Origin: Candidatus Parendomicrobium reticulitermitis
Lineage (GTDB): Bacteria; Elusimicrobiota; Endomicrobiia; Endomicrobiales; Endomicrobiaceae
Length of the DNA stretch: 64,000 nucleotides
Assembly: GCA_031287095.1 (NCBI GenBank)
Contig: JAITTG010000087.1
Coordinates: 26,023-90,022, forward strand
Direction: 5' to 3'
Under the pieces are notes generated by a model that ran no database searches, was not told the origin of the DNA, and was given only the letters and a program-made list of their open reading frames with translations. Both the position numbers and the translations under genes were made by a program. Every line of letters begins with the position of its first letter. The first letter of the stretch is position 1. Positions 29,655-43,553 of this stretch are shown piece after piece.

Positions 29655-29904
29655 TTCGCAATCAGAATACAAACAATTTTAAAAGAGATTGGGCGGCATT
29701 TTCGTCATTGCGGGCTTGACCCGCAATCTCTGCTATCGCATTAGTTGTCAATTGCGCGCTTTGTCGTGTTTTCAGTCTGCGCATATCGCAGCGGCGGATT
29801 TCAAACCCGCCCAAAAAGTTGTCATTCTATACCGAGTCATTTTGTCTTGTCATTGCGCGTCCTGCGGCTTCACGCAGAATGACATATCAAAAAAGGAAAT
29901 TAAA

Positions 29905-32640: not shown

Positions 32641-32799
32641 GGACCTCTTGCATAACTGATATACAAAAAATGTAAGAATATAAGATTGCCGTTGTGCGCT
32701 AACAGAACTCATCAGTGCGAAAACAAGATTGTCATTCTGCGCGAAGCCGTAGAATGACACTATCCCTCTATTTTTATGTGTTGGTTGCGCAAGAGATCT
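32641..32799 (+). mobile_element. non-autonomous TIR element (MITE), minimal 159-bp copy
   Basis: GGACCTCTTGC...GCAAGAGATCT termini. AAT at 32638-32640 and at 32800-32802. Internal GTCATTCTGCG/CGTAGAATGAC hairpin. Confidence 0.7.
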
Positions 32800-33029: not shown

Positions 33030-34355
33030 TTGAAAGACTTCTTTCCAACGCCCGCGCCTTTAAGGTCTGTCAAAAGCAACAGAACGCTAATTCCAAAGCC
33101 TGAACTTGATTTATACAGAGGCGAAGCCGACGATATAGCGAATATATCTAACCGCATAAAAATACTTGTAAAAGCAATCAAGGCGAACGGGTTTTATCCC
33201 GCAAGGTTTAAAGATTCAATAACGAAACTTGAAAACACCGACGACACGGAGTTGATAGCCGTAGATTTTGCCGACGATATTAGAGATTTAGGCGGCATAG
33301 ACAAGATGTTTCATTACAAGCCGATAGCGCAGTTTGAGCAAGTGGCAAAAGGATTATACGCTCAACAACAAAACTTAATCCAAGAGATATACGAGATAAC
33401 AGGGATAAGCGACATAATGCGCAACATATCCAAAGAAGAGACAGCCACAGCAACAAGACAAAAAGGCAAGTTTGGAAGTTTAAGATTACAACAAAGACAA
33501 TCGGCGTTAAACAATTACATCAAATCAATCTATACCATAGCGACAGAGTTAGTTTGCGAGTTATTTGACATAGACGCGTTAAAAGAAATCACATCAATGG
33601 CATTGCCTACAAACCAAGAACTTGCAGACTTTCAAACAAAACAGCAAACCGTTCAATCGCAATTTCAATCGGCAATGCAAGCCTATCAACAACAAATGCA
33701 ACAAGCGCAAGCGCAAGGACGGCAGTTGCAAATACAGGCTCCGCAACAACCGCAGGTTGCGCCGGAAGTATTAAAGTATTTTTCAAATCCCACATGGGAG
33801 AAGTTAAAGGAATACATAGAAGACAGCCGTTTACGCTCTTATTTGCTTGATGTAGAGACAAATTACAGCGTATGGGAGACAGATTTAGAAACGCAAAAAT
33901 CGCGCACAGAGTTATTTACAACAATTACGGACACCATACAAAAAGCGTCGCCGATAATAGCGGCAACGCCTGAACTTGCGGACATTTATATGAAGTTGAT
34001 TAGTTTCACCATAGACGGCTTTAAAGTATCAAGAAGCCTAAAGAACGGCATAGAGGACGCGTTGTTAGAGATAGTAGAGAACATAAAAAAGAAACAAGCG
34101 CAGCCTCCGCAACAACAGCCTGACGCTCAAATGCTGCTTGCGCAAGCGGAGATGAAAAAAGCGGAAGCGGAAGGCATAGTAGCAAAAGCAAGAATGCAGG
34201 AAGCTCAAGTAAAAGCAATGCAAGCGCAGGCGGAACTGCAACTTGAGCAAGCCAAAGTAAATATAGACACGCAAGCCAAACAAGCCGACATTCAACTTAA
34301 AGCGCAAAAGAATCAGATAGAGGCGGCAAAGCCGCTTTTTCCACAAACGATATAG
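33030..34355 (+). CDS. phage portal-like protein, probably N-terminally truncated
   Basis: TTG-initiated frame. Has ITGISDIMRN, a YLLDVETNYSV core and a long Q/A/K-rich C-terminal coiled coil of the kind seen in portal barrels. Gene order (portal, post-portal protein, scaffold) supports the call. Confidence 0.5.
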   Translation: MKDFFPTPAPLRSVKSNRTLIPKPELDLYRGEADDIANISNRIKILVKAIKANGFYPARFKDSITKLENTDDTELIAVDFADDIRDLGGIDKMFHYKPIAQFEQVAKGLYAQQQNLIQEIYEITGISDIMRNISKEETATATRQKGKFGSLRLQQRQSALNNYIKSIYTIATELVCELFDIDALKEITSMALPTNQELADFQTKQQTVQSQFQSAMQAYQQQMQQAQAQGRQLQIQAPQQPQVAPEVLKYFSNPTWEKLKEYIEDSRLRSYLLDVETNYSVWETDLETQKSRTELFTTITDTIQKASPIIAATPELADIYMKLISFTIDGFKVSRSLKNGIEDALLEIVENIKKKQAQPPQQQPDAQMLLAQAEMKKAEAEGIVAKARMQEAQVKAMQAQAELQLEQAKVNIDTQAKQADIQLKAQKNQIEAAKPLFPQTI

Positions 34356-34366
34356 GGTTATAAAAG

Positions 34367-35419
34367 ATGGATTACAAAGACATCACCCAACCCATACAAG
34401 CGGGCTTTAACAATTCAGATATAGGCATAGCGTTTAACCGCTCAATGCCGCGACCTGAAGAATACGAAAGATTAAGTCCGTTTAAAAAAGCGATAGCGGC
34501 AGGGGCAAGCATGGTAAGCGACAGTCCCGTATATATGCTTGGCGGGTTATTGGGCGCAGTAGCGGGCGGAGCGGGCGCGCCGATAGGAGCATTAGGATTA
34601 CAAAGAGGATATAGGCAATACTTAAACGAATTATACGGCAATGATGAAAACAGAAATACTGATATTATTTCAAGAGGCGCAAGGGTAGGCAGGGAGAGTT
34701 TATACGGAGCGGGCGAGGGTTTAGCGACGCAAAAAGCGGCTCAACTTTTAGGCAGCTTTGCTCCGCTTGTTTTAAACAAAATCGTAAATAAAAGAGTTCC
34801 GACGGTGAATGTAACTGACGATATGCTTATAAAACTTGAAAACAATTTACCTAATGGAATAAATAATCCTTTTTATAAATTCGTGCAAGACAATAGAAAA
34901 TGGATAGAGATGAAGCCTCAAATGGAATCAAATGCAGAAAGATATATCAACAATAAATTTGGAGTGAACAATTTAGACACTGCGGTAAAGGTAAAGTCGC
35001 CGATAGAGGATATAAACATAACGCCTGAATATTTGCAAAAACTTGTAAATCACCCGAGGGATATTCACAGAAACGAATTTGTTCCAGAGGCTTTGGCAAC
35101 TTTGGAAAGACCAAATCAGATTGTCAAAGATGCGCAAGGAAGGAATAATTATTTTAAATTGTTTTATGATGGAAAGTTTAAGCCTCATTTAAGCGGCGTT
35201 TCGCAGAAAGCAGATGAAACATTTTTCAATACAAGTTTTCCATTACAAGGCAGAAATATCACAAAAAGAATAGCGGGCGATACTATTTACCAAAAAAAAG
35301 ACGCCCCGCGGTGGGTAACACCGCGTGCGTCGACCCAATATATAGTAAATAATTCAAAAAGAATCAACGAGACAATGCGGAAATTGCTGGGCAGTTTTTA
35401 CAAGAAATATAAAAAGTAA
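34367..35419 (+). CDS. post-portal virion protein: Gly-rich membrane-like segment plus AT-rich C-terminal domain resembling phage PBECR-type nuclease modules
   Basis: Occupies the MuF/gp7 position. GGLLGAVAGGAGAPIGALG segment. C-terminal ...ITPEYLQKLVNHPRDIHRNEFVPEALATLERPNQIVKD... Composition switches from GC-rich to AT-rich near 34790. Confidence 0.45.
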   Translation: MDYKDITQPIQAGFNNSDIGIAFNRSMPRPEEYERLSPFKKAIAAGASMVSDSPVYMLGGLLGAVAGGAGAPIGALGLQRGYRQYLNELYGNDENRNTDIISRGARVGRESLYGAGEGLATQKAAQLLGSFAPLVLNKIVNKRVPTVNVTDDMLIKLENNLPNGINNPFYKFVQDNRKWIEMKPQMESNAERYINNKFGVNNLDTAVKVKSPIEDINITPEYLQKLVNHPRDIHRNEFVPEALATLERPNQIVKDAQGRNNYFKLFYDGKFKPHLSGVSQKADETFFNTSFPLQGRNITKRIAGDTIYQKKDAPRWVTPRASTQYIVNNSKRINETMRKLLGSFYKKYKK

Positions 35420-35488
35420 TCTGTGAGGTTCCACTCCACAAAAGATTTACAGGCAGTCAAACAAACAAAAGGAAAACAGGAGGAAGCA

Positions 35489-36601
35489 ATGGAAAACGAA
35501 GAAATTAACCCGACGGTAGAAGACGGAGCAATCCCTCAGGAGACGCAATCGGAACAAACGCAAGTAGAGGGGGACGCAGGCAAACCGACTGAGGTCAACC
35601 CATCCAAGAACGCTTTACAACTTGCCCTTGAAAAAGCGCAGAAGGAAATTGACGATAAAGACGCAGAGGAACAAAAGGCAAAACAAAAAGGAGCAGACGG
35701 CAAACAAGGCAAGGCGCAACCCAAGAAAGACGGCGAAAACAAAGACGATGACAAAACAAAAACGGACGACGGCAAAACTCCAAAGGTTCAAGACAAAGGC
35801 GGCAAGCAAGAGTTTGCGCCGCAAGAGCATTGGACTGACGAGCAGAAGGAGTTTTTTAACGGATTAGAACCGCAAAATCAAAAGAAAGTTTTAGATATGT
35901 ATAAGGGCATTCAAAAGGTTTACGAGAAAAAGACGCTTGACTTATCCAAACAGCAAAAGAGTTATGAGCAATTCAACAAAGCGTTTGAACCTTACGAGGA
36001 CATTTTCAAAAAGCAAAACATAGACAAAGGCGCATATATCAAGCAGATGATAGATTTAGACAGGCAGGCGACTGCAAATCCTGTGGAGTTTGCGATAAAG
36101 TTTATGCAGTCAAGGGGATTAAATTTAGACCACATAATTGCGGGCATACAACAGATGTCAAGCCCCGAGTATCAGCACATAGCGCCGTTAAAACAGAAAT
36201 TAGAAAGTTTGCAAAAGCAAATAGAAAGCGAGACCTCAAACAAAGAGTCTGTCAAGTTTGAGGGATTGATAGAAGAGTTTAAAAACGAGACGGACGAGTC
36301 GGGAAATTTGGCGCATCCATATTTTGACGAAGTGCAGGAACAAATGGCGCAAATCTCTACTGCTACTGGGGAGACAGACCTTGCCAAGATATACGAGCAA
36401 GCGTTATGGACTACGCCGGAAGTAAGAGCAAAGTTGATAGAAGCGGAAAAGCAAAAAGTAGCGCAGGCAAAACAAAAGGAAGACCAAGCAAAAAAGACGC
36501 AAGCGGCGGCGGGCTTGCACATCAAGAATTCAGCGGCTCCAGCCAATCCTCCCAAAAAGCAAGGATTGAGGAGCATAATAGAAGAACTTGATGGAGAATA
36601 A
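35489..36601 (+). CDS. phage scaffolding-like protein
   Basis: ATG at 35489 behind AGGAGG. Highly charged K/E/D/Q-rich, helix-prone, 370 aa, located after the portal module. Confidence 0.45.
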   Translation: MENEEINPTVEDGAIPQETQSEQTQVEGDAGKPTEVNPSKNALQLALEKAQKEIDDKDAEEQKAKQKGADGKQGKAQPKKDGENKDDDKTKTDDGKTPKVQDKGGKQEFAPQEHWTDEQKEFFNGLEPQNQKKVLDMYKGIQKVYEKKTLDLSKQQKSYEQFNKAFEPYEDIFKKQNIDKGAYIKQMIDLDRQATANPVEFAIKFMQSRGLNLDHIIAGIQQMSSPEYQHIAPLKQKLESLQKQIESETSNKESVKFEGLIEEFKNETDESGNLAHPYFDEVQEQMAQISTATGETDLAKIYEQALWTTPEVRAKLIEAEKQKVAQAKQKEDQAKKTQAAAGLHIKNSAAPANPPKKQGLRSIIEELDGE

Positions 36602-36618
36602 ACCGTCGTAAAGAAAAC

Positions 36619-36948
36619 TAAAGTCAATCGCCACAATCAAACCCTGAAAGGGTTTAATGAAGTTAATAACCCCGTATTGCCTGCAAGGCTATGCGGGGGC
36701 GATAAAGTCAATCGCAACAATCAAACACTGAAAGGGTTTAATGCAGTTAATAACCCCGTATTGCCACAGGCTATGCGGGGACGATAAAGTCAATCGCCAC
36801 AACCAAACCCTGAAAGGGTTTAATGCAGTTAATAACCCCGTATTGCCGCAGGCTATGCGGGGACGATAAAGTCAATCGCCGCACCCAAACCCTGAAAGGG
36901 TTTAATGTAGTTAATAACCCCGTATTGCCTGCAAAGGCTATGCGGGGA
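36619..36948 (+). repeat. four tandem copies of the 82-nt two-hairpin leader element
   Basis: Copies at 36619-36702, 36703-36784, 36785-36866 and 36867-36948. Stems conserved, linker and loop variable. Ends 15 nt before the rSAM ATG. Confidence 0.9.
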
Positions 36949-36963
36949 CACAAGGAAACCAAA

Positions 36964-38031
36964 ATGCAAAACTTTTTAAGGAACAAAATCAAAACCATTT
37001 TTATAAGTCTTGGCGGCGGGTGTAATTTGTCATGCTCTTATTGCTCGCAAAAAAAAGAACACATAGAAAACATAGCCGTCGTCAACAAAGACATATATAG
37101 ATTTATCAAAGAGCATGCGTCTTATCACAGCAAATCCGACAAATTAAAAGTCTTATTTTACGGCGGCGAACCGCTTTTATATTTTGACAAAATCAAAACC
37201 ATTGCCAAAAAAATCAAAAGCAAAAAAATACATTTCACAATAATCACCAACGGCAAACTATTAAATCAGGAAATAGTAAAGTTTTTAAATAAATATAAAT
37301 TCGGCGTTCAAGTGTCTTGGGACGGGCGGGCAAGTTTAGAAAGCAGAGGCTTTGACGCCGTGAAAGAAAAAAAGGATTTATTGTTTAAACTAAACTCAAT
37401 GTCGTTCTCGTCTATTATCACGGACAAATTGAGATTAAAAGATTTAGTTGAGGATATTGAAACATTCAATACAGAGTATGCCAAACGCAATAACGGGCGT
37501 ATTGCTAATGCAATAGTTGACGCTGTTAGAGACAGAAATAATGCCGCAGGACGCATAGATTACAATGTATTAGAGCAAGACATGAGAGACTTGATTAAAA
37601 GCGTATTTGTAGAAGGTAAAAACGAGTCGTTTAAATATTGGTTTAATTTAGAGTTTAAAAATTTAAGAAACTTTATAACCGTTTATAAAGACAAACAAAG
37701 CGTCCTGTCTCCTTGCCCTGAAGGTTTGCAGCATATCAGCATAAATTTGAAAGGAGACATTTTGCATTGCCATAATGCAAGCGGCATAAACGGGACTATA
37801 TACAGCGATTATTATGAGTATTTAAGCAAGGTATTGAGTAAAACCAAGTCCTGTCAAGAAGGCGCTTTCTGCGAAGTATATTCATTATGTAAAGGCGGGT
37901 GCAAACTTGCCAATGCGCTCGGCGAAAATACGGACATATATTGCCAATCGCGCAAAGCGTTGTTAAAACCGATTTTAGAGTTTGTATCTTATTTACATTA
38001 TGCGCTAACAAAGGAGGTTGTAAATGTTTGA
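36964..38031 (+). CDS. radical SAM enzyme with C-terminal SPASM-like Cys cluster domain
   Basis: GCNLSCSYC (CX3CX2C), a GGEPLL motif, and C-terminal CPEGLQHISINLKGDILHC...CQEGAFCEVYSLCKGGC...C. Start at 36964; the track ORF from 36823 reads through the repeat array. Confidence 0.8.
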   Translation: MQNFLRNKIKTIFISLGGGCNLSCSYCSQKKEHIENIAVVNKDIYRFIKEHASYHSKSDKLKVLFYGGEPLLYFDKIKTIAKKIKSKKIHFTIITNGKLLNQEIVKFLNKYKFGVQVSWDGRASLESRGFDAVKEKKDLLFKLNSMSFSSIITDKLRLKDLVEDIETFNTEYAKRNNGRIANAIVDAVRDRNNAAGRIDYNVLEQDMRDLIKSVFVEGKNESFKYWFNLEFKNLRNFITVYKDKQSVLSPCPEGLQHISINLKGDILHCHNASGINGTIYSDYYEYLSKVLSKTKSCQEGAFCEVYSLCKGGCKLANALGENTDIYCQSRKALLKPILEFVSYLHYALTKEVVNV

Positions 38032-38827
38032 AATTAGAAATAATACGCAAACCCAAAATTCAAAAGATGAGACAAAATTAAGTTTAAATTTAAAAGGACA
38101 AAAACTCTTTATCAATGTAGAAAGAGAGGACGCTCAATTTAACGAAGTATTAAATTTAAAATCTTATTCTATGTATAAAGTATTTCAGACAGATAATGAA
38201 CCTATATACTTTGTAGATGTCAACAGAATAACTTCGCTATTTAGACTGCCCAGAAAAGATTATAAGCAATTGCCAAATGACTCGGGCTATATCTTTTCCA
38301 TTAAAACGGGAATGATTTCAGACAGCGTCCGCGATATTCTAATAGACAATAAAGACATAAAAAAAGAAAACATCAAAATAATATCGGATATGCCTTACAA
38401 TCAATCGGATTTAGACTTTAAACTAAAACTCGCCATGCAAGACAAAACGCTTCTTGATTACTTTTCTCTATCTGCAAACGGGCAGGAATACAAAGCCGAC
38501 AGCGCAGGCAATAATATAGACGGCGATTTTGACAAACCGATAATCCCGCTTTATACCGATGGCAAAAGCAATTTACCCTTTGCAGAGTTTGTCATTCAAA
38601 AATATCTGCGCCGTTTTGAAGCGCCTTTAAACAGAGACATAGACAATGACGAAGTAACCGTTGAAAGTTCGGCTGGTTTAGTAAATACGCGGCGCGCATA
38701 TATGCAAAACGGCATTACAAAATTCAGGCTTTATCCTTTCGGTTATGAGGGCAAAATCAAAATCAAAATCGGACGGCGTTGGTATGAAAACTTAAACGAA
38801 TACAATTTAATTTTAGGCGGCGCATAA
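38024..38827 (+). CDS. hypothetical protein, translationally coupled to the rSAM gene
   Basis: 8-nt overlap with the rSAM stop. 267 aa, no Cys, very AT-rich like the rSAM gene. No family recognised. Confidence 0.5.
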   Translation: MFEIRNNTQTQNSKDETKLSLNLKGQKLFINVEREDAQFNEVLNLKSYSMYKVFQTDNEPIYFVDVNRITSLFRLPRKDYKQLPNDSGYIFSIKTGMISDSVRDILIDNKDIKKENIKIISDMPYNQSDLDFKLKLAMQDKTLLDYFSLSANGQEYKADSAGNNIDGDFDKPIIPLYTDGKSNLPFAEFVIQKYLRRFEAPLNRDIDNDEVTVESSAGLVNTRRAYMQNGITKFRLYPFGYEGKIKIKIGRRWYENLNEYNLILGGA

Positions 38828-38834
38828 AATAATG

Positions 38835-38862
38835 GCAGGGGCGAACCTATATGTTCGCCCGC
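38835..38862 (+). repeat. REP palindrome GCAGGGGCGAAC-CTATAT-GTTCGCCC
   Basis: Stem variant of the GGGGCAGAC...GTCTGCCCC family; both arms changed together. Confidence 0.7.
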
Positions 38863-38886
38863 AAAACAAACAACAGGAGGCAACAA

Positions 38887-39678
38887 ATGAACGGACAATT
38901 TACCAATCCCGCGCCGCAAATATACGGCGACGGAATTTTTGCAAACTATGTTAGGAACTCAAAAAACGCAAGCGGCAACGCTTTAGCCGCCGCATTACAA
39001 GCGGACGCCGACAAAAAGAAATCAATGCAAAATCCCGGCGGTAAAAGTTATGCGACAAGCAAACTTGAAGAAGCGGGCAAAATGGGCGCGGGCTATGTAA
39101 GCGGTTTAGCAAATGTATTAGCGGGCGTTTCGCAAGGGCATGACGCAAACAAACAAAAAGAATACGACGCGTATAAAAACGAGAAATTAGCAAACGCCAT
39201 GGCTACAGGCGACGCTTCAAGCGCGGTAGAGTTTGACGCGGACTTGGCAAAAACTTTAGCCGAAAACAATCTCAAAAAACAACAAGCCGCCGAGAAAATG
39301 GCTTTTGATAAAGAAATGAATCAAAGCAATCAAGATTATGATTATCAAAAAGTATTAGGCAGTTACGGACAGCAAAGCAAAGAAAACGCCGCTCAAAGAA
39401 AACTCCAATGGGACATAGCAAACCTAAAAGACGCAAGCGCAGGCGGCGGCGATGACAAGACAATAGCGGGAATGCCCGAGAAAGCCTTTTATGAGTTATA
39501 CAACAAATTAAGTCCGAAAGACCAAGCGCAAGTATTGCAAAAACCCGACCTTATACACGCAAGCAAAAACAGAGGCTTTTTTGGTTCAAAACTCGGCGCA
39601 GGCAAACATAGCGCGGTATTGGGCAAAGGCGCGCCTCAAACAGCGCAAAATCCCTACGCGTCAAAATATGGCTTTTAA
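38887..39678 (+). CDS. low-complexity A/K/Q/G-rich phage protein (internal virion protein-like)
   Basis: ATG at 38887 behind AGGAGG. GC-rich like the phage backbone. The last 11 codons are duplicated downstream of the REP at 39680. Confidence 0.45.
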   Translation: MNGQFTNPAPQIYGDGIFANYVRNSKNASGNALAAALQADADKKKSMQNPGGKSYATSKLEEAGKMGAGYVSGLANVLAGVSQGHDANKQKEYDAYKNEKLANAMATGDASSAVEFDADLAKTLAENNLKKQQAAEKMAFDKEMNQSNQDYDYQKVLGSYGQQSKENAAQRKLQWDIANLKDASAGGGDDKTIAGMPEKAFYELYNKLSPKDQAQVLQKPDLIHASKNRGFFGSKLGAGKHSAVLGKGAPQTAQNPYASKYGF

Positions 39679-39679
39679 T

Positions 39680-39706
39680 GTAGGGGCGAACCCATGTGTT
39701 CACCCG
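39680..39706 (+). repeat. GTAG-headed REP palindrome inserted at a gene junction
   Basis: GTAGGGGCGAAC-CCATGT-GTTCACCCG, flanked by diverged ~33-nt direct repeats (39646-39678 and 39710-39741). Confidence 0.75.
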
Positions 39707-39753
39707 TCTCAAAATCCCTATGCGGGAAATATAGTTTTTAACAAGAGGATTAT

Positions 39754-42207
39754 ATGAATAAAAATTTAGCGCAGATTAGAAACAATGTAGGCATAATGCT
39801 ATCCAAAGGCGCGCCGGAAGAGGATATAGACGGCTATTTAGCCAGCGTAGGCTCAAACGCCGACGAAATCAAAAACTATAAAGACCCGGGCATAGTATCT
39901 GCCGGCTTGTTTGCAAATGCCGCCGAAGGCGCGACAGTAGGTCTTGCCGATGTGTTATACGGCGCAGGCGGCGCGTCATTAAAGAAGTTCAAAGACGCCG
40001 TCAGCGGCAACGATAACAGTCCCAAAATAACAAGGGGGCTTTCAGGTTTTACTCTTATAAACGACGGCGACAATAAATTGAGGCAAGCCACAAAAGAGGA
40101 AGACGACGCAAACAAAGCGTCATGGAGCAACCTATTTAACGAATACAGAAAAGACTTTAACGATACCAAAAATCAATACAATGATTATCACGGCGCAATC
40201 GGCACGGTGGCAGATGTGGCGGGCAGTTTTGCTCCTATCATATTAACAGGCGGCGCGGGAGCATTAGTCAAAGGCGGCGCAACGGCTGGCAAAGCGGGTT
40301 TAGGTCAATTAGCAAAACAAGGATTTAAAACAGGCGGCAAATGGGGCGGCGCTTACGGCGCGGGCAATGGTTTAACAGAAGGGGACGAATTGTCAATCGG
40401 CAACGCTTTATTAGGCGGCGCAACAGGTTTAGGTATGGGAGCGGCAGGCGGGGCATTATTGCCTGTATTGGGTTCTTTTGCGGGCAAAGCGATAAAACCT
40501 TTTACAAAGCAAGGCAAGTTTGACAGATTCGCAAAAAAAATCGGGATGGATAAAATTGACGAGTCAATAGAAAACAATAGACCGCTTATAGAGAATGCCG
40601 ATGAGAATATAATGTCAATGGCGGAAGGAGCAGGTCTTAATAATGTCGGCGCCCGTCAAATACTGCATGACTATGCCAATATAAGAAAAGGACAGCAAGT
40701 AGGCATAATTGACGACCAAATAAATAATACTTTTGGCGCAAAAGGCGCAGACGCAGTGACAAGAGAGATTGAGGAAGCGGGTAAAAGAGAGTATCAAATG
40801 CTTTATGATAAGGCACTAAACCAGCCTCACGGCGTTATACCTAATTTAGAACCAACCTTAAAAAACCCGCGCATTGCCAAAGCGTTAAAAGTAGTCCGCA
40901 AAGAATATCCCGAATACGACCAATTTCCAGACACGCATATACAAGTGCTTGACTTAGTTAAACAACAATTAGACGACGATATAGCCAAAGCGGTGAATTT
41001 TAATGAAAAGTTAAAAGCAGGCTTTTTACTTGAAGCAAAAGATAATTTAGTAGCGAAACTTGATAAAGCGTCGCCAATATACAAAGAGGCAAGAGGTTCA
41101 TTTGCCGGCATGAAAGATTTGCAATCTTTTGTTGATAAAGGCAGAAACTACAACAAAATGACAAGAGAAGAGATAGAGGAATTATCTAAAACTTTAACGC
41201 CGGAAAACAAAAAAGCCTTTAATGCCGGCATAAGAGAAACGCTTATAAAGAACCTTGACGACGGGGCAAAGAGCGAGGGTGTAAATGTTGCAAGGCGGGT
41301 ATTTGACGACAGCACTTTACGCAAACTTGAAGGATTGGGCATAGACGATTTTCAACAATTAAAAGACATCATGCTTAAAGAAAGGCAAACAATGCAAAAC
41401 ATCAATCGCTTTGCAAGCGGCAGTCAAACAGCGGAACGAGAAGCCGATAAACAATTTAGGCAAGCCTTGCCTGTAAAAATGATTTTTAACCCAATCCGCA
41501 CAGCTAAGAAACTTACAGAAAAAGCATATTTAAAAGCATTAGGTTTAGGCGATGAAGAGATTGCAAGATATTTGACAAATACAGGCGCGCTTGCGAAAGC
41601 AAGGAGCGGAGGAACATCAAGCCGTGTAAATATCAATCCAGTATTTACAAAAGGCTATTCTGCCACGCAACTCAAAGATAAGGCAATAAAAAATGAAATA
41701 CGAGATAAATATGCCGATTGGTATAAGAATAATTTACAAGGTGAGAAATATCAAAAAGAAGGGTTAGAAAGCGATATAGATTTTAATAGATTTGGTAAGA
41801 ACGAACCTCAAAGCAATAGCGCTTATATAAATAAGTTGGACTTTGGAAAGTATGCAAAAGAATTGATTGATACAGGTAAATTAAGTGGTCAAAAGAAACT
41901 GAAACACCCAAGTGAGCGATATAAGTATTTTAAGAATATTTATACTCCCGTAGAATATAACGGAAAGAAAATGAAATCAAGCATATTTTTAGGTAAAAAT
42001 AAATTTGATTCAGGCTATACCTATCACGATTTTTCGCCTATGGATTATAGTGTCATTGGGGATTATCTTTATAACAGACCAGCAGATAATAAACTCAATG
42101 ATATAACAAAGTTACTTGGAAGTTTTGCAGGAATAAAACAAGATTTAGTAAGTAATCCTATCAGAAAACTGCTTGGAAGTTATGAATATTTATTAAGGAA
42201 AAAATAA
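39754..42207 (+). CDS. large multi-domain virion protein (polyvalent/ejection-protein-like) with an AT-rich C-terminal module
   Basis: 817 aa. Gly-rich segment at aa 150-245. Composition switches to AT-rich near 41640. LGSFA-type motif recurs four times. Confidence 0.45.
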   Translation: MNKNLAQIRNNVGIMLSKGAPEEDIDGYLASVGSNADEIKNYKDPGIVSAGLFANAAEGATVGLADVLYGAGGASLKKFKDAVSGNDNSPKITRGLSGFTLINDGDNKLRQATKEEDDANKASWSNLFNEYRKDFNDTKNQYNDYHGAIGTVADVAGSFAPIILTGGAGALVKGGATAGKAGLGQLAKQGFKTGGKWGGAYGAGNGLTEGDELSIGNALLGGATGLGMGAAGGALLPVLGSFAGKAIKPFTKQGKFDRFAKKIGMDKIDESIENNRPLIENADENIMSMAEGAGLNNVGARQILHDYANIRKGQQVGIIDDQINNTFGAKGADAVTREIEEAGKREYQMLYDKALNQPHGVIPNLEPTLKNPRIAKALKVVRKEYPEYDQFPDTHIQVLDLVKQQLDDDIAKAVNFNEKLKAGFLLEAKDNLVAKLDKASPIYKEARGSFAGMKDLQSFVDKGRNYNKMTREEIEELSKTLTPENKKAFNAGIRETLIKNLDDGAKSEGVNVARRVFDDSTLRKLEGLGIDDFQQLKDIMLKERQTMQNINRFASGSQTAEREADKQFRQALPVKMIFNPIRTAKKLTEKAYLKALGLGDEEIARYLTNTGALAKARSGGTSSRVNINPVFTKGYSATQLKDKAIKNEIRDKYADWYKNNLQGEKYQKEGLESDIDFNRFGKNEPQSNSAYINKLDFGKYAKELIDTGKLSGQKKLKHPSERYKYFKNIYTPVEYNGKKMKSSIFLGKNKFDSGYTYHDFSPMDYSVIGDYLYNRPADNKLNDITKLLGSFAGIKQDLVSNPIRKLLGSYEYLLRKK

Positions 42208-42355
42208 AAAAAGAGTCGTTCAACGGCTTGCACTCAAAGGCAAGATATTAAAGCGACTCTTTTCTTACACGCGTGCTGGCGAGTGAATTCCCTCACCAAC
42301 GATAAGTGAATATATAAAAAATCTTTTTTAATGTCAACAAATAGGAGGTCACAAA

Positions 42356-42661
42356 ATGCAACAAATACCAATCCACACAGACGGCAAACCTGAAGGCGAG
42401 ATGTCGGCGTTTTGCCTATGCAAAGAGGGCAACGGCGCAGTTCTTGAAACCATAGGTTTAACAGAAGGACAAATCCAAATTGAAATGACGACATTTCAAG
42501 ACAATTACAAGTCTTGCGCAGACGACGACGGCAACCCCTTAATAATCACGCCGACAGACAATTTGATAGTTGAATTAGAAAACGCGCCATACTACATAAG
42601 GGCGATGTATGACGGCGCCCAAGACGCAAGCGAAATAACAATAGTATTAAGGAGGCAATAA
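42356..42661 (+). CDS. hypothetical small acidic phage protein
   Basis: 101 aa, strong AGGAGG SD. Its stop overlaps the next start (TAATG). Confidence 0.45.
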   Translation: MQQIPIHTDGKPEGEMSAFCLCKEGNGAVLETIGLTEGQIQIEMTTFQDNYKSCADDDGNPLIITPTDNLIVELENAPYYIRAMYDGAQDASEITIVLRRQ

Positions 42662-42963
42662 TGGGATTTTGGAAAAAACATTTCGGCAAAACCAGCGGCG
42701 CAGTAAAAGCCGCATGGGGCAAAATAACAGGCGACATAGATGCTCAAACGGACTTGAAAGATAAACTTGACGGCAAAGCAGACATTGCCAACACTTACAC
42801 AAAAGCCGAGACAGACGAAGAAATAACAAACGCTCAATTAGCAACACAGCAATGGCTTCCTGCGGTTGATACAAAAGCATTTGTCATATTTATCAAGGAG
42901 CGTATATTCTATAAGTTTGATTGCTATGTTTACATCGGATTCTTTTTCCTCGTGTCTTTGTAA
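42661..42963 (+). pseudogene. N-terminal fragment of a phage tail-fibre-like protein
   Basis: DIDAQTDLKDKLDGKADIANTYTKAETDEEITNAQ is a common tail-fibre N-terminal pattern. After about aa 72 the frame turns into AT-rich nonsense, which marks a deletion junction. Confidence 0.45.
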
Positions 42964-42989: not shown

Positions 42990-43304
42990 TTAGATATTTT
43001 CTTTGTTATTACATTTTGTTATTGATTTATATTTAAAGTTTCCGAGAATGATTTCAATGTTTAAAAAATTTAATGCAAATAGATATGTTTTATGTCTTTG
43101 AACAGAAGCAATCCCTATATATTTTGCTAATGCAGAAAAGTGTATGATTTCTGCATTTGTTTTATCATCAGTATCATTTAAAAAAGATTCAATAAGCGTT
43201 CTATAATTAATCCATTTTATAGGACTCTTAAACTTGCGCTGATAAATGTTTATTTTATGATAGTAATTAAATCCATCTATTAACGCTAAAATTCTGTTTT
43301 TCAT
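42990..43304 (-). pseudogene. NYN-domain (LabA-like) protein fragment
   Basis: MKNRILALIDGFNYYH... N-terminus is typical of NYN nucleases. Only about 104 aa, ending before the usual C-terminal part. Confidence 0.4.
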
Positions 43305-43553
43305 ATTATTACCCTTTATGCAAAAAAAGAGGGGCAACTCTAATGAGTTTCCCCGACCGCTTAATAAAATGGAGTGTAAGGAAAAGGCGCTCGCATCTCA
43401 CGCCTGCCGCCAGATATGCGCCCTTTATTCATTGCGCGGCGGCTGCAACTTGCGAGAAGCCTTTGTTGTTGTATAACGCATCATAACCAACTCCTGTCCA
43501 AAAATAGTAAAATACTCCCTTTGAAAAAATCACATACAAGGAGTTAAACTCAA

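Follow-up and report, generated by a model that had tools for sequence, protein, structure and literature searches.

The stretch analyzed here, 64,000 nucleotides of the genome of Candidatus Parendomicrobium reticulitermitis (contig JAITTG010000087.1, positions 26,023 to 90,022; hereafter the window), contains two genes, p350 and p817 (Table 1), that probably encode virion-type carriers with exchangeable effector cassettes, following the design of polyvalent proteins and stranded in a decayed podovirus-like prophage. Polyvalent proteins were described by Iyer et al. in 2017 as fusions of effector domains to proteins encoded among the virion genes of portal-bearing phages (PMC5512222). Their orthologs show extensive domain mosaicism, their delivery via the virion is predicted, and their PBECR2 and LPD38 domains are found only in phages (PMC5512222). 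We propose that a conserved core of the phrog_5880 type acts as a carrier, whose add-on, at the end or at an internal site, would differ between phages. In the window, this core would bear an LPD3 domain, while p350 would be a different and shorter Gly-rich anchor bearing a module of the PBECR2 type. The added enzymes would be carried by the virion into a new host cell and act there, e.g., by cleaving host or defense RNAs. Both open reading frames (ORFs) are open as described in an earlier reading made from the DNA letters alone (the sequence-only reading), which had likened their architecture to that of polymorphic toxins and noted a recurrent motif in them.

p817 as a probable carrier and its modules

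Residues 53 to 610 of p817 matched phrog_5880, a family without assigned function (E = 4.9e-26; profile positions 58 to 615 of 661). The alignments of p817 to P0002 (48%), P0003 (39%), P0004, and the homolog of the related genome G014 all stop near residues 612 to 616. Past this point, the homologs carry different end modules or none, bearing out the earlier claim that the C termini vary after a conserved part. P0002 ends soon after the core and has no added domain, P0003 carries an LPD3 domain, and P0004 and P0018 carry C-terminal PBECR2 modules that are 33% and 40% identical to the module of p350, respectively. In P0010, an ART-PolyVal domain is inserted in the middle of the p817-type carrier. 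There are also short forms (P0016; G017:C30, 463 aa; G013:C239, 387 aa), where the Gly-rich N-terminal region is joined directly to a PBECR2-type or an LPD3-type module. Judging from these alignments, p817-family carriers exchange their end modules, bearing LPD3, PBECR2, an inserted ADP-ribosyltransferase, or no module at all, and the type of module found in p350 appears on p817-family carriers elsewhere.

The family is encoded late in the structural module, after the fiber or nozzle genes, in the loci L001, L002, L044, and L051. The gene adjoins that of a 1814-aa virion protein in L001, and in another locus it lies at the prophage end, beside the bacterial genes smpB and uvrD. This late position, together with the Gly-rich and weakly hydrophobic N-terminal region, suggests that p817 is an internal or ejected virion protein. 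A homolog was present in 5 of the 61 related genomes, a sporadic distribution that fits a mobile element. The search for related loci in genome, viral, and metagenome collections, using p817 or alignments, gave no confirmed relatives, and tblastn with p817 as the query gave no match in 50,697 deposited phage genomes. The same was true of a degenerate DNA pattern encoding DDGAKSEGVN, sought in viral and metagenome contigs, of a look-up in sequencing runs, and of p350, p817, and p101 against PADLOC and NCBIfam.

Some of the homologs have peculiar surroundings. At the edge of its contig (L044, G014:C42, positions 1 to 300), the G014 homolog passes at its C terminus into several perfect copies of the peptide LTSTPNSRQA, and its end module is unreadable owing to this repeat. 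A small gene (140 or 151 aa) precedes the short-form LPD3 protein of G017 and G013 (L010, G017:C30, positions 2056 to 2511; L007, G013:C239, positions 1033 to 1455); from the appearance of its sequence alone, we take it to be a putative cell-wall peptidase. The gene context of these short forms is unlike that of the long p817-type genes.

The PBECR2-type module of p350

Searched exhaustively with HMMER, a set of 1.84 billion representatives yielded 34 relatives of p350, 10 of them at E ≤ 1e-10, whereas a word-index search had returned nothing but p350 itself. Almost all the relatives align through residues 140 to 340. They are 132 to 2314 aa long, the position of the module in them varies, and some also bear LPD38, LPD3, GGDEF, or sigma-70 domains. 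The closest are P0016 (43% identity), which is a short-form p817-type carrier, P0018 (40%), which is a full one, and P0017 (38%), a protein of 1643 aa with a Gly-rich N-terminal segment, a p350-type module, an HExxH region, and LPD38. Among the homologs of the module (E values of 1e-13 to 1e-38), P0022, P0023, and P0021 pass the cut-off of the Pfam family PF18810 (PBECR2) with 50.1, 61.3, and 35.9 bits, as do P0019 (32.5 bits) and P0017 (32.2 bits); P0004 scores 29.6 bits. The assignment of the C-terminal domain of p350 to PBECR2, a phage family of predicted RNases of the BECR type, is thus supported by its homologs, and p350 is predicted to have RNase activity.

The AlphaFold2 (AF2) model of p350 has a predicted local distance difference test score (pLDDT) above 90 for residues 141 to 318 and shows a helix (233-247) followed by five strands (251-254, 260-268, 272-280, 286-291, and 305-309), which is the layout defined for the PBECR2 fold (PMC5512222). 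R235, K264, and T289 are nearly invariant, and in an alignment of 25 sequences at least 90% retain R235 and T289. The active site of BECR enzymes combines a His in the N-terminal helix, for which one of the six PBECR families has an Arg, with a Ser or Thr in strand 4 (PMC5512222). In the p350 model, R235 starts the helix and T289 lies in the fourth strand, so that both would match the Arg variant of this pattern.

The N-terminal part of p350, which has a pLDDT below 50 in the model, gave HMMER matches to P0034 (E = 3.5e-7; query residues 8 to 123), which bears Pfam LPD38, and to P0046 (4.5e-4) and P0048 (1e-3). From these matches, p350 resembles a large polyvalent protein reduced to its first quarter. 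In G014, the scaffold gene follows the portal gene with none in between, and p350 is therefore an accessory gene of the phage in the window.

The LPD3 domain of p817

The sequence-only reading regarded both C-terminal domains as modules of the nuclease or toxin type. This agrees with the predicted RNase of p350 but not with p817, whose residues 647 to 747 matched the LPD3 family PF18798 (39.3 bits, E = 8.3e-10, over the cut-off of 27 bits; 43.2 bits in a six-frame search). The AF2 model of residues 620 to 817, built from 31 aligned sequences, has a pLDDT of about 90 in the domain and a predicted template modeling (TM) score of 0.73. It comprises a long helix, short helices, and a long three-stranded antiparallel sheet. 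Foldseek comparison of this model with the predicted viral structures of BFVD gave 10 matches to phage polyvalent or LPD3 proteins at E ≤ 0.001 (1.8e-8 to 5e-4; TM score on the query, 0.49 to 0.58), including proteins named LPD3 and PolyVal ART, and the domain therefore appears, at the level of models, to share the fold of annotated phage LPD3 domains. The same model against the PDB gave nothing significant, and hence no nuclease or toxin fold (best E = 0.036, the neighbors being generic NTF2- or cystatin-like proteins), and the LPD3 profile had no match among PDB sequences. A word-index search with the C-terminal part of p817 alone found only p817. LPD3 was listed among the domains of elusive function (PMC5512222), and we found no characterization of it in the literature after Iyer et al.

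LPD3 is also present elsewhere in the source genome, with five more matches (contigs C38, C45, C87, C106, and C123) within open frames that are 283 to 2446 aa long. Across the bacterial family, it occurs in 20 of 89 genomes, both as stand-alone genes of about 160 aa and as part of giant frames that reach 4625 aa.

Composition breaks and cassette exchange

Both abrupt switches to AT-rich coding sequence reported by the sequence-only reading, near 34790 and near 41640, were recovered in the G+C content (GC) and in the G+C content of third codon positions (GC3). In p350, GC and GC3 are 0.467 and 0.421 for residues 1 to 140 and 0.352 and 0.348 for residues 141 to 350. In p817, they fall from 0.484 and 0.471 (residues 1 to 259) to 0.398 and 0.349 (260 to 629), then to 0.306 and 0.267 in the LPD3 part and to 0.278 and 0.119 in the tail. 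Since the shift is visible at third codon positions, the content in Gly and Ala is not the full explanation of these breaks. Backbone phage genes (portal, scaffold, p275, and p101) have a GC3 of 0.43 to 0.48, host genes have one of 0.34 to 0.37, and the genome has a GC of 0.377. The N-terminal parts of p350 and p817 are thus GC-rich like other backbone phage genes, the C-terminal module of p350 is host-like, and the LPD3 part and the tail alone are more AT-rich than both phage backbone and host. The foreign composition attributed earlier to both C-terminal modules consequently holds, strictly speaking, for the LPD3 part but not for the p350 module.

The breaks in composition coincide with breaks in homology, which argues for cassette exchange. 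Homology to the p350 module starts at residues 140 to 148 (nucleotides 34784 to 34808), where GC drops near 34790. In p817, the end of core homology (around residue 616) and the start of LPD3-type homology to the short forms (around residue 641) bracket the drop near 41640. The composition mosaic would then be the mark left by the exchange of cassettes.

Table 1. Features of p350, p817, and the surrounding prophage remnant, with positions in the window
Feature	Position	Strand	Description
p350 (350 aa)	34367..35419	+	Gly-rich N-terminal anchor, PBECR2-type module, C-terminal tail
p350 N-terminal part, aa 1-140	34367..34786	+	Gly-rich segment GGLLGAVAGGAGAPIGALG; related to N-terminal regions of LPD38-type polyvalent proteins
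QLLGSFAP, p350 aa 126-133	34742..34765	+	10-20 residues upstream of the start of module homology
PBECR2-type predicted RNase module, p350 aa ~145-318	34799..35320	+	Pfam PF18810 at aa 197-309
p350 C-terminal tail helix ...MRKLLGSFYKKYKK	35354..35416	+	AF2 helix 330-349, pLDDT ~80; hydrophobic moment 0.58
p817 (817 aa)	39754..42207	+	phrog_5880-family virion protein, C-terminal LPD3 cassette, double tail
p817 conserved family core, aa ~48-616	39895..41601	+	phrog_5880 match and homolog alignments
Gly-rich, moderately hydrophobic region, p817 aa 150-250	40201..40503	+	Flanked by VAGSFAP and VLGSFAG
LPD3 domain, p817 aa ~641-775	41674..42078	+	Pfam PF18798
p817 double C-terminal tail ...TKLLGSFAGIKQDLVSNPIRKLLGSYEYLLRKK	42079..42204	+	Conserved twice in G017 and once in G013
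Portal protein, C-terminal fragment	33030..34355	+	About the first 280 profile positions missing; phrog_12082, E = 2.7e-84
Scaffold-like protein	35423..36601	+	38% identity to the 439-aa gene of G014; 25% to the 322-aa gene of L002
Radical-SAM gene and 267-aa ORF (overlapping)	36823..38827	+	Pfam Radical_SAM, phrog_1802; GC 0.35
p275	38851..39678	+	By position, the counterpart of the gene that precedes p817-family genes in relatives
p101	42356..42661	+	Backbone-linked small gene
Tail (fiber) protein, N-terminal fragment	42661..42963	+	Closes the remnant on the right; matches phrog_25379 tail protein (E = 7e-5) and, weakly, Pfam PTR

A decayed podovirus-type prophage

The region of the window from 33030 to 42963 is a podovirus-type prophage remnant located between an MtaB/MiaB-like gene and uvrA. 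A fuller relative, L044 of G014, comes from a different genome within this bacterial family. There, terminase, portal, and scaffold are followed, in this order, by the major head protein (phrog_9953), an adaptor-like tail protein, a 522-aa protein at the nozzle position, a fiber-like protein, a 275-aa gene, and the p817 homolog. The same gene order is found in L002, a 35-kb metagenomic phage contig. The portal ORF of the remnant covers positions 280 to 696 of the 715-position phrog_12082 profile and aligns with residues 241 to 649 of the portal encoded by the G014 prophage (652 aa); the genome assembly has no portal match besides this truncated one. Terminase, major head protein, adaptor, and nozzle are missing from the remnant. 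The terminase, coat, adaptor, and nozzle of G014 had no tblastn match in the whole assembly, and neither TerL nor the major head protein, adaptor, and nozzle of the podovirus-like lineage were found anywhere in it. The truncation of the portal and the absence of these head and tail genes indicate a decayed prophage whose particle-building parts are gone, leaving p350 and p817 stranded.

A recurrent motif and a conserved C-terminal tail

The sequence-only reading had drawn attention to a short motif recurring across the two proteins. All six sites that it listed are present, along with a seventh in p817 (RGSFAGM, residue 448) and VLGSYG in the 275-aa ORF. In 20,000 residue shuffles of p350 and p817, the observed counts were never reached: GS[FY] occurs 7 times (0.45 expected), LGS[FY] 5 times (0.04 expected), and LLGS[FY] 4 times (0.003 expected). 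In all stop-to-stop frames of at least 80 aa of the 2.16-Mb genome, there are seven LLGS[FY] sites, and four of them fall in these two proteins. The motif is not a DNA repeat, since codons differ between copies and the recurrence is at the protein level.

The internal copies fared differently from one another when homologs were aligned. VAGSFAP (p817 residues 155 to 161) is conserved in the family as G[SG][FIL][AI]P where the Gly-rich region begins, and QLLGSFAP of p350 is similar to it. VLGSFAG (residues 238 to 244) is not conserved among homologs, and RGSFAG at residue 448 was rejected as a chance resemblance, given that homologs show ARQ[SA]F there. The motif is therefore absent or degenerate at the aligned internal positions, and the suggestion that LLGSF is a module boundary did not hold. 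Similarly, the Gly-rich segments that had been called membrane-like are real, but they are only moderately hydrophobic, with best 19-residue Kyte-Doolittle windows of 1.0 to 1.2.

The conserved form of the motif is a C-terminal tail, [RK]LLGS[FYL], placed 11 to 37 residues from the end, and it is this tail alone that is conserved outside the locus, in G017 and G013. The G017 and G013 proteins end in ...SRLLGSYAGRISARKANDKNSLLNKLLGSYAENIDQHKW and ...RRLLGSLYPVMKYIWEKENRDY, respectively, before their stop codons, as p350 and p817 end in ...MRKLLGSFYKKYKK and ...TKLLGSFAGIKQDLVSNPIRKLLGSYEYLLRKK. Looser versions are found in P0003 (YILGRMFGG) and P0018 (NILAGMIGK), and the tail is absent from P0004, P0016, and P0002. 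A further 28 LPD3 proteins from this bacterial family lack it, whether they stop there or extend further, for which reason we rejected the motif as a feature of LPD3. A profile of LPD3 plus tail retrieved only the three known proteins from 122 genomes of the class, and a DNA pattern for K-LLGS[FY] was uninformative, matching across 89 genomes of the family at a rate equal to that of its reversed control. The tails of p350 and p817 are predicted by AF2 to be helical, the terminal copies being amphipathic (hydrophobic moments of 0.49 to 0.58). We propose that the tail is a lineage-specific, selected C-terminal helix that would accompany the cassettes and serve in virion loading or membrane attachment.

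Possibly, though rather doubtfully, the tail is a virion-loading signal that docks cargo onto the interior of the procapsid (coat, scaffold, or portal), as in encapsulins. It is C-terminal in both p350 and p817 despite the unrelated domains that precede it, it is conserved in G017 and G013, duplicated in two of these four proteins, and followed by basic residues, and LPD3 proteins outside the phage lineage lack it. Encapsulin targeting peptides are also C-terminal and show a widely conserved GSL followed by Arg or Lys (PMC7925596). However, the likeness to them amounts to five residues only, the more distant relatives named above lack the tail or hold only its loose version, and a coat gene is absent from both window and genome.

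Another tentative reading makes the tail and the internal GSFA(G/P) sites elements of membrane attachment or helix packing (GxxxG-type small-residue motifs within an amphipathic helix), which would tether the proteins to the inner membrane or bundle with the Gly-rich segments. GS[FY]AG is a GxxxG pattern, found at the edges of the Gly-rich hydrophobic region and in the tails, and the helical prediction, the moments of 0.49 to 0.58, and the flanking Lys and Arg residues are consistent with this role. The low hydrophobic moment of the first p817 tail copy (0.33) and the weak hydrophobicity of the Gly-rich segments argue against it. MinD and FtsA, with which the tail was compared, have C-terminal membrane-targeting helices.

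By analogy with the GSL-type peptides of encapsulins, whose shells have the HK97 fold in common with phage coats, the tail could be their phage counterpart, a capsid-targeting peptide for loading exchangeable effector cassettes into the procapsid of this podovirus lineage, but we consider this improbable. Finally, a cleavage site of a maturation protease that frees the modules is very unlikely: the motif is short, recurs near domain edges, and polyvalent proteins are often processed (PMC5512222), but neither the window nor those related loci that were examined contain a prohead protease or MPTase domain, the relatives have a separate scaffold protein, and most sites come after the module rather than between carrier and module, so that cleavage would remove only 10 to 35 residues. 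The weight left over by loading, membrane attachment, and proteolysis goes to a tail without specific function.

Weighing the polyvalent reading

Several observations weigh against p350 and p817 being polyvalent-type carriers of effectors. With 23.3 bits (E = 7.9e-5), p350 itself scores under the curated cut-off of PF18810 (27.1 bits), and its model has no Foldseek match in the PDB at E ≤ 0.001. LPD3 is without known activity. Outside the window, the clear tail is found on two proteins only (G017 and G013). We infer the packaging or ejection of the p817 family from gene position and composition only, and the profile of the p817 core matched no solved ejection or core protein among PDB sequences. 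In addition, both ORFs are intact even though capsid genes have been lost and host repeats gained, and they could have been kept for a use on the host side.

The polymorphic-toxin architecture proposed by the sequence-only reading, in which a conserved delivery part with swapped C-terminal toxins would act against competing bacteria and the 101-aa ORF would confer immunity, is highly improbable. It would account for conserved N-terminal parts with variable C-terminal modules, RNases of the BECR type are common as tips of polymorphic toxins (PMC5512222), and the best PDB neighbor of the p350 model is a contact-dependent inhibition (CDI) toxin (6cp9_A; E = 0.11, probability 0.47), a match that is not significant. 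Yet no immunity gene is linked to either protein. The scaffold gene begins 4 nt after p350, leaving no room for a gene between them. The p101 product was rejected as an immunity protein for LPD3, because a homolog 57% identical to it is encoded downstream of P0002, which has no C-terminal module, and G017 and G013 have no common downstream partner. Furthermore, no MuF, Rhs, CDI, CdiA, PAAR, or secretion-system domain was detected with Pfam and NCBIfam, and both genes are located among virion genes. A delivery mechanism of the polyvalent type requires no immunity partner, and in the absence of a linked immunity gene the polyvalent-protein label fits, while that of polymorphic toxin does not.

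Comparison with known systems

Like polyvalent proteins, p350 and p817 carry PBECR and LPD3 domains (and ART-PolyVal in a relative), are encoded beside portal and scaffold genes, and have mosaic orthologs. At least two distinct domains, virion-gene neighbors, and mosaicism, by which we recognize polyvalent proteins, are all found in them, making p350 and p817 a minimal two-part case. In contrast to polyvalent proteins, which have up to 15 domains, they have one add-on each and no MPTase. Their carriers also differ, being a structural protein of the phrog_5880 type and a short Gly-rich anchor, and the module is followed by the LLGS[FYL] tail. The head proteins of the MuF family (Mu gp30/F and SPP1 gp7 type) resemble p350 in that it directly follows the portal and has a C-terminal module of the BECR type, but no MuF domain was detected in p350, its N-terminal part is an LPD38-related Gly-rich anchor, and G014 has no gene at that place.

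The internal core or ejection proteins of podoviruses (gp14, gp15, and gp16 of T7; gp7, gp20, and gp16 of P22) are comparable to p817, which occupies a late position after the tail genes, beside a very large virion protein in L001, and is large, with helical content and Gly-rich hydrophobic segments. Unlike them, p817 has no sequence similarity to any solved structure, the link being by gene position only. The tail, in turn, recalls encapsulin targeting peptides (PMC7925596), with a short C-terminal arrangement of hydrophobic residue, G, S, and hydrophobic residue, then basic residues, at times in duplicate, and its partner in the shell would be a protein of the HK97 fold. It differs from them in that most copies have an aromatic residue where Leu would stand and in that the window has no shell gene, and this resemblance is a lead only.

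Most of these findings are accounted for by known biology. The two-part design of carrier and module was already known from polyvalent proteins, and what is new is the short conserved tail motif. Moreover, phrog_5880, a family without a function, now appears as a carrier for exchangeable cassettes (predicted RNase, LPD3, and ADP-ribosyltransferase), and one cassette type is common to two different carriers, which widens the polyvalent picture to small two-part proteins. A tail that served as a signal for loading or for the membrane would offer a simple handle for studying the packing of cargo into heads of tailed phages, or for engineering it in laboratory phages, and, if it is a loading signal, it might tie phage cargo loading to that of encapsulins.

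Other genes of the remnant and its borders

The scaffold-like gene of the remnant has its 439-aa homolog between portal and major head protein in G014. The slot occupied by the major head protein, adaptor, and nozzle in the gene order of G014 and L002 is filled here by a radical-SAM gene and an overlapping 267-aa ORF. The match of the former to the PADLOC pVip models was limited to the generic radical-SAM core. The latter (p267) had no family match and was rejected as a small coat protein, having no similarity to the coat proteins of the relatives. The p275 product gave weak phmmer matches, in a small database, to a 256-aa protein of L003 (4e-4) and to the 275-aa protein of G014 (5e-3). In the tail-protein ORF that closes the remnant, just about 70 residues are protein-like.

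The left edge of the remnant (window positions 32700 to 32760) and the 5' extensions of the ORFs at 29689 and 31043 carry a palindromic host repeat (...GTCATTCTGCGCGAAGCCGTAGAATGAC...), which recurs upstream of neighboring genes. The presence of host repeats also within the remnant suggests a long residence. Next to the right end, positions 42990 to 43337 encode on the minus strand a 115-aa ORF with a GC of 0.24, matching the N-terminal half of the PADLOC candidate-defense model HEC-09 (E = 1.5e-10; profile positions 2 to 93 of 203), and this ORF is probably a truncated gene bordering the remnant.

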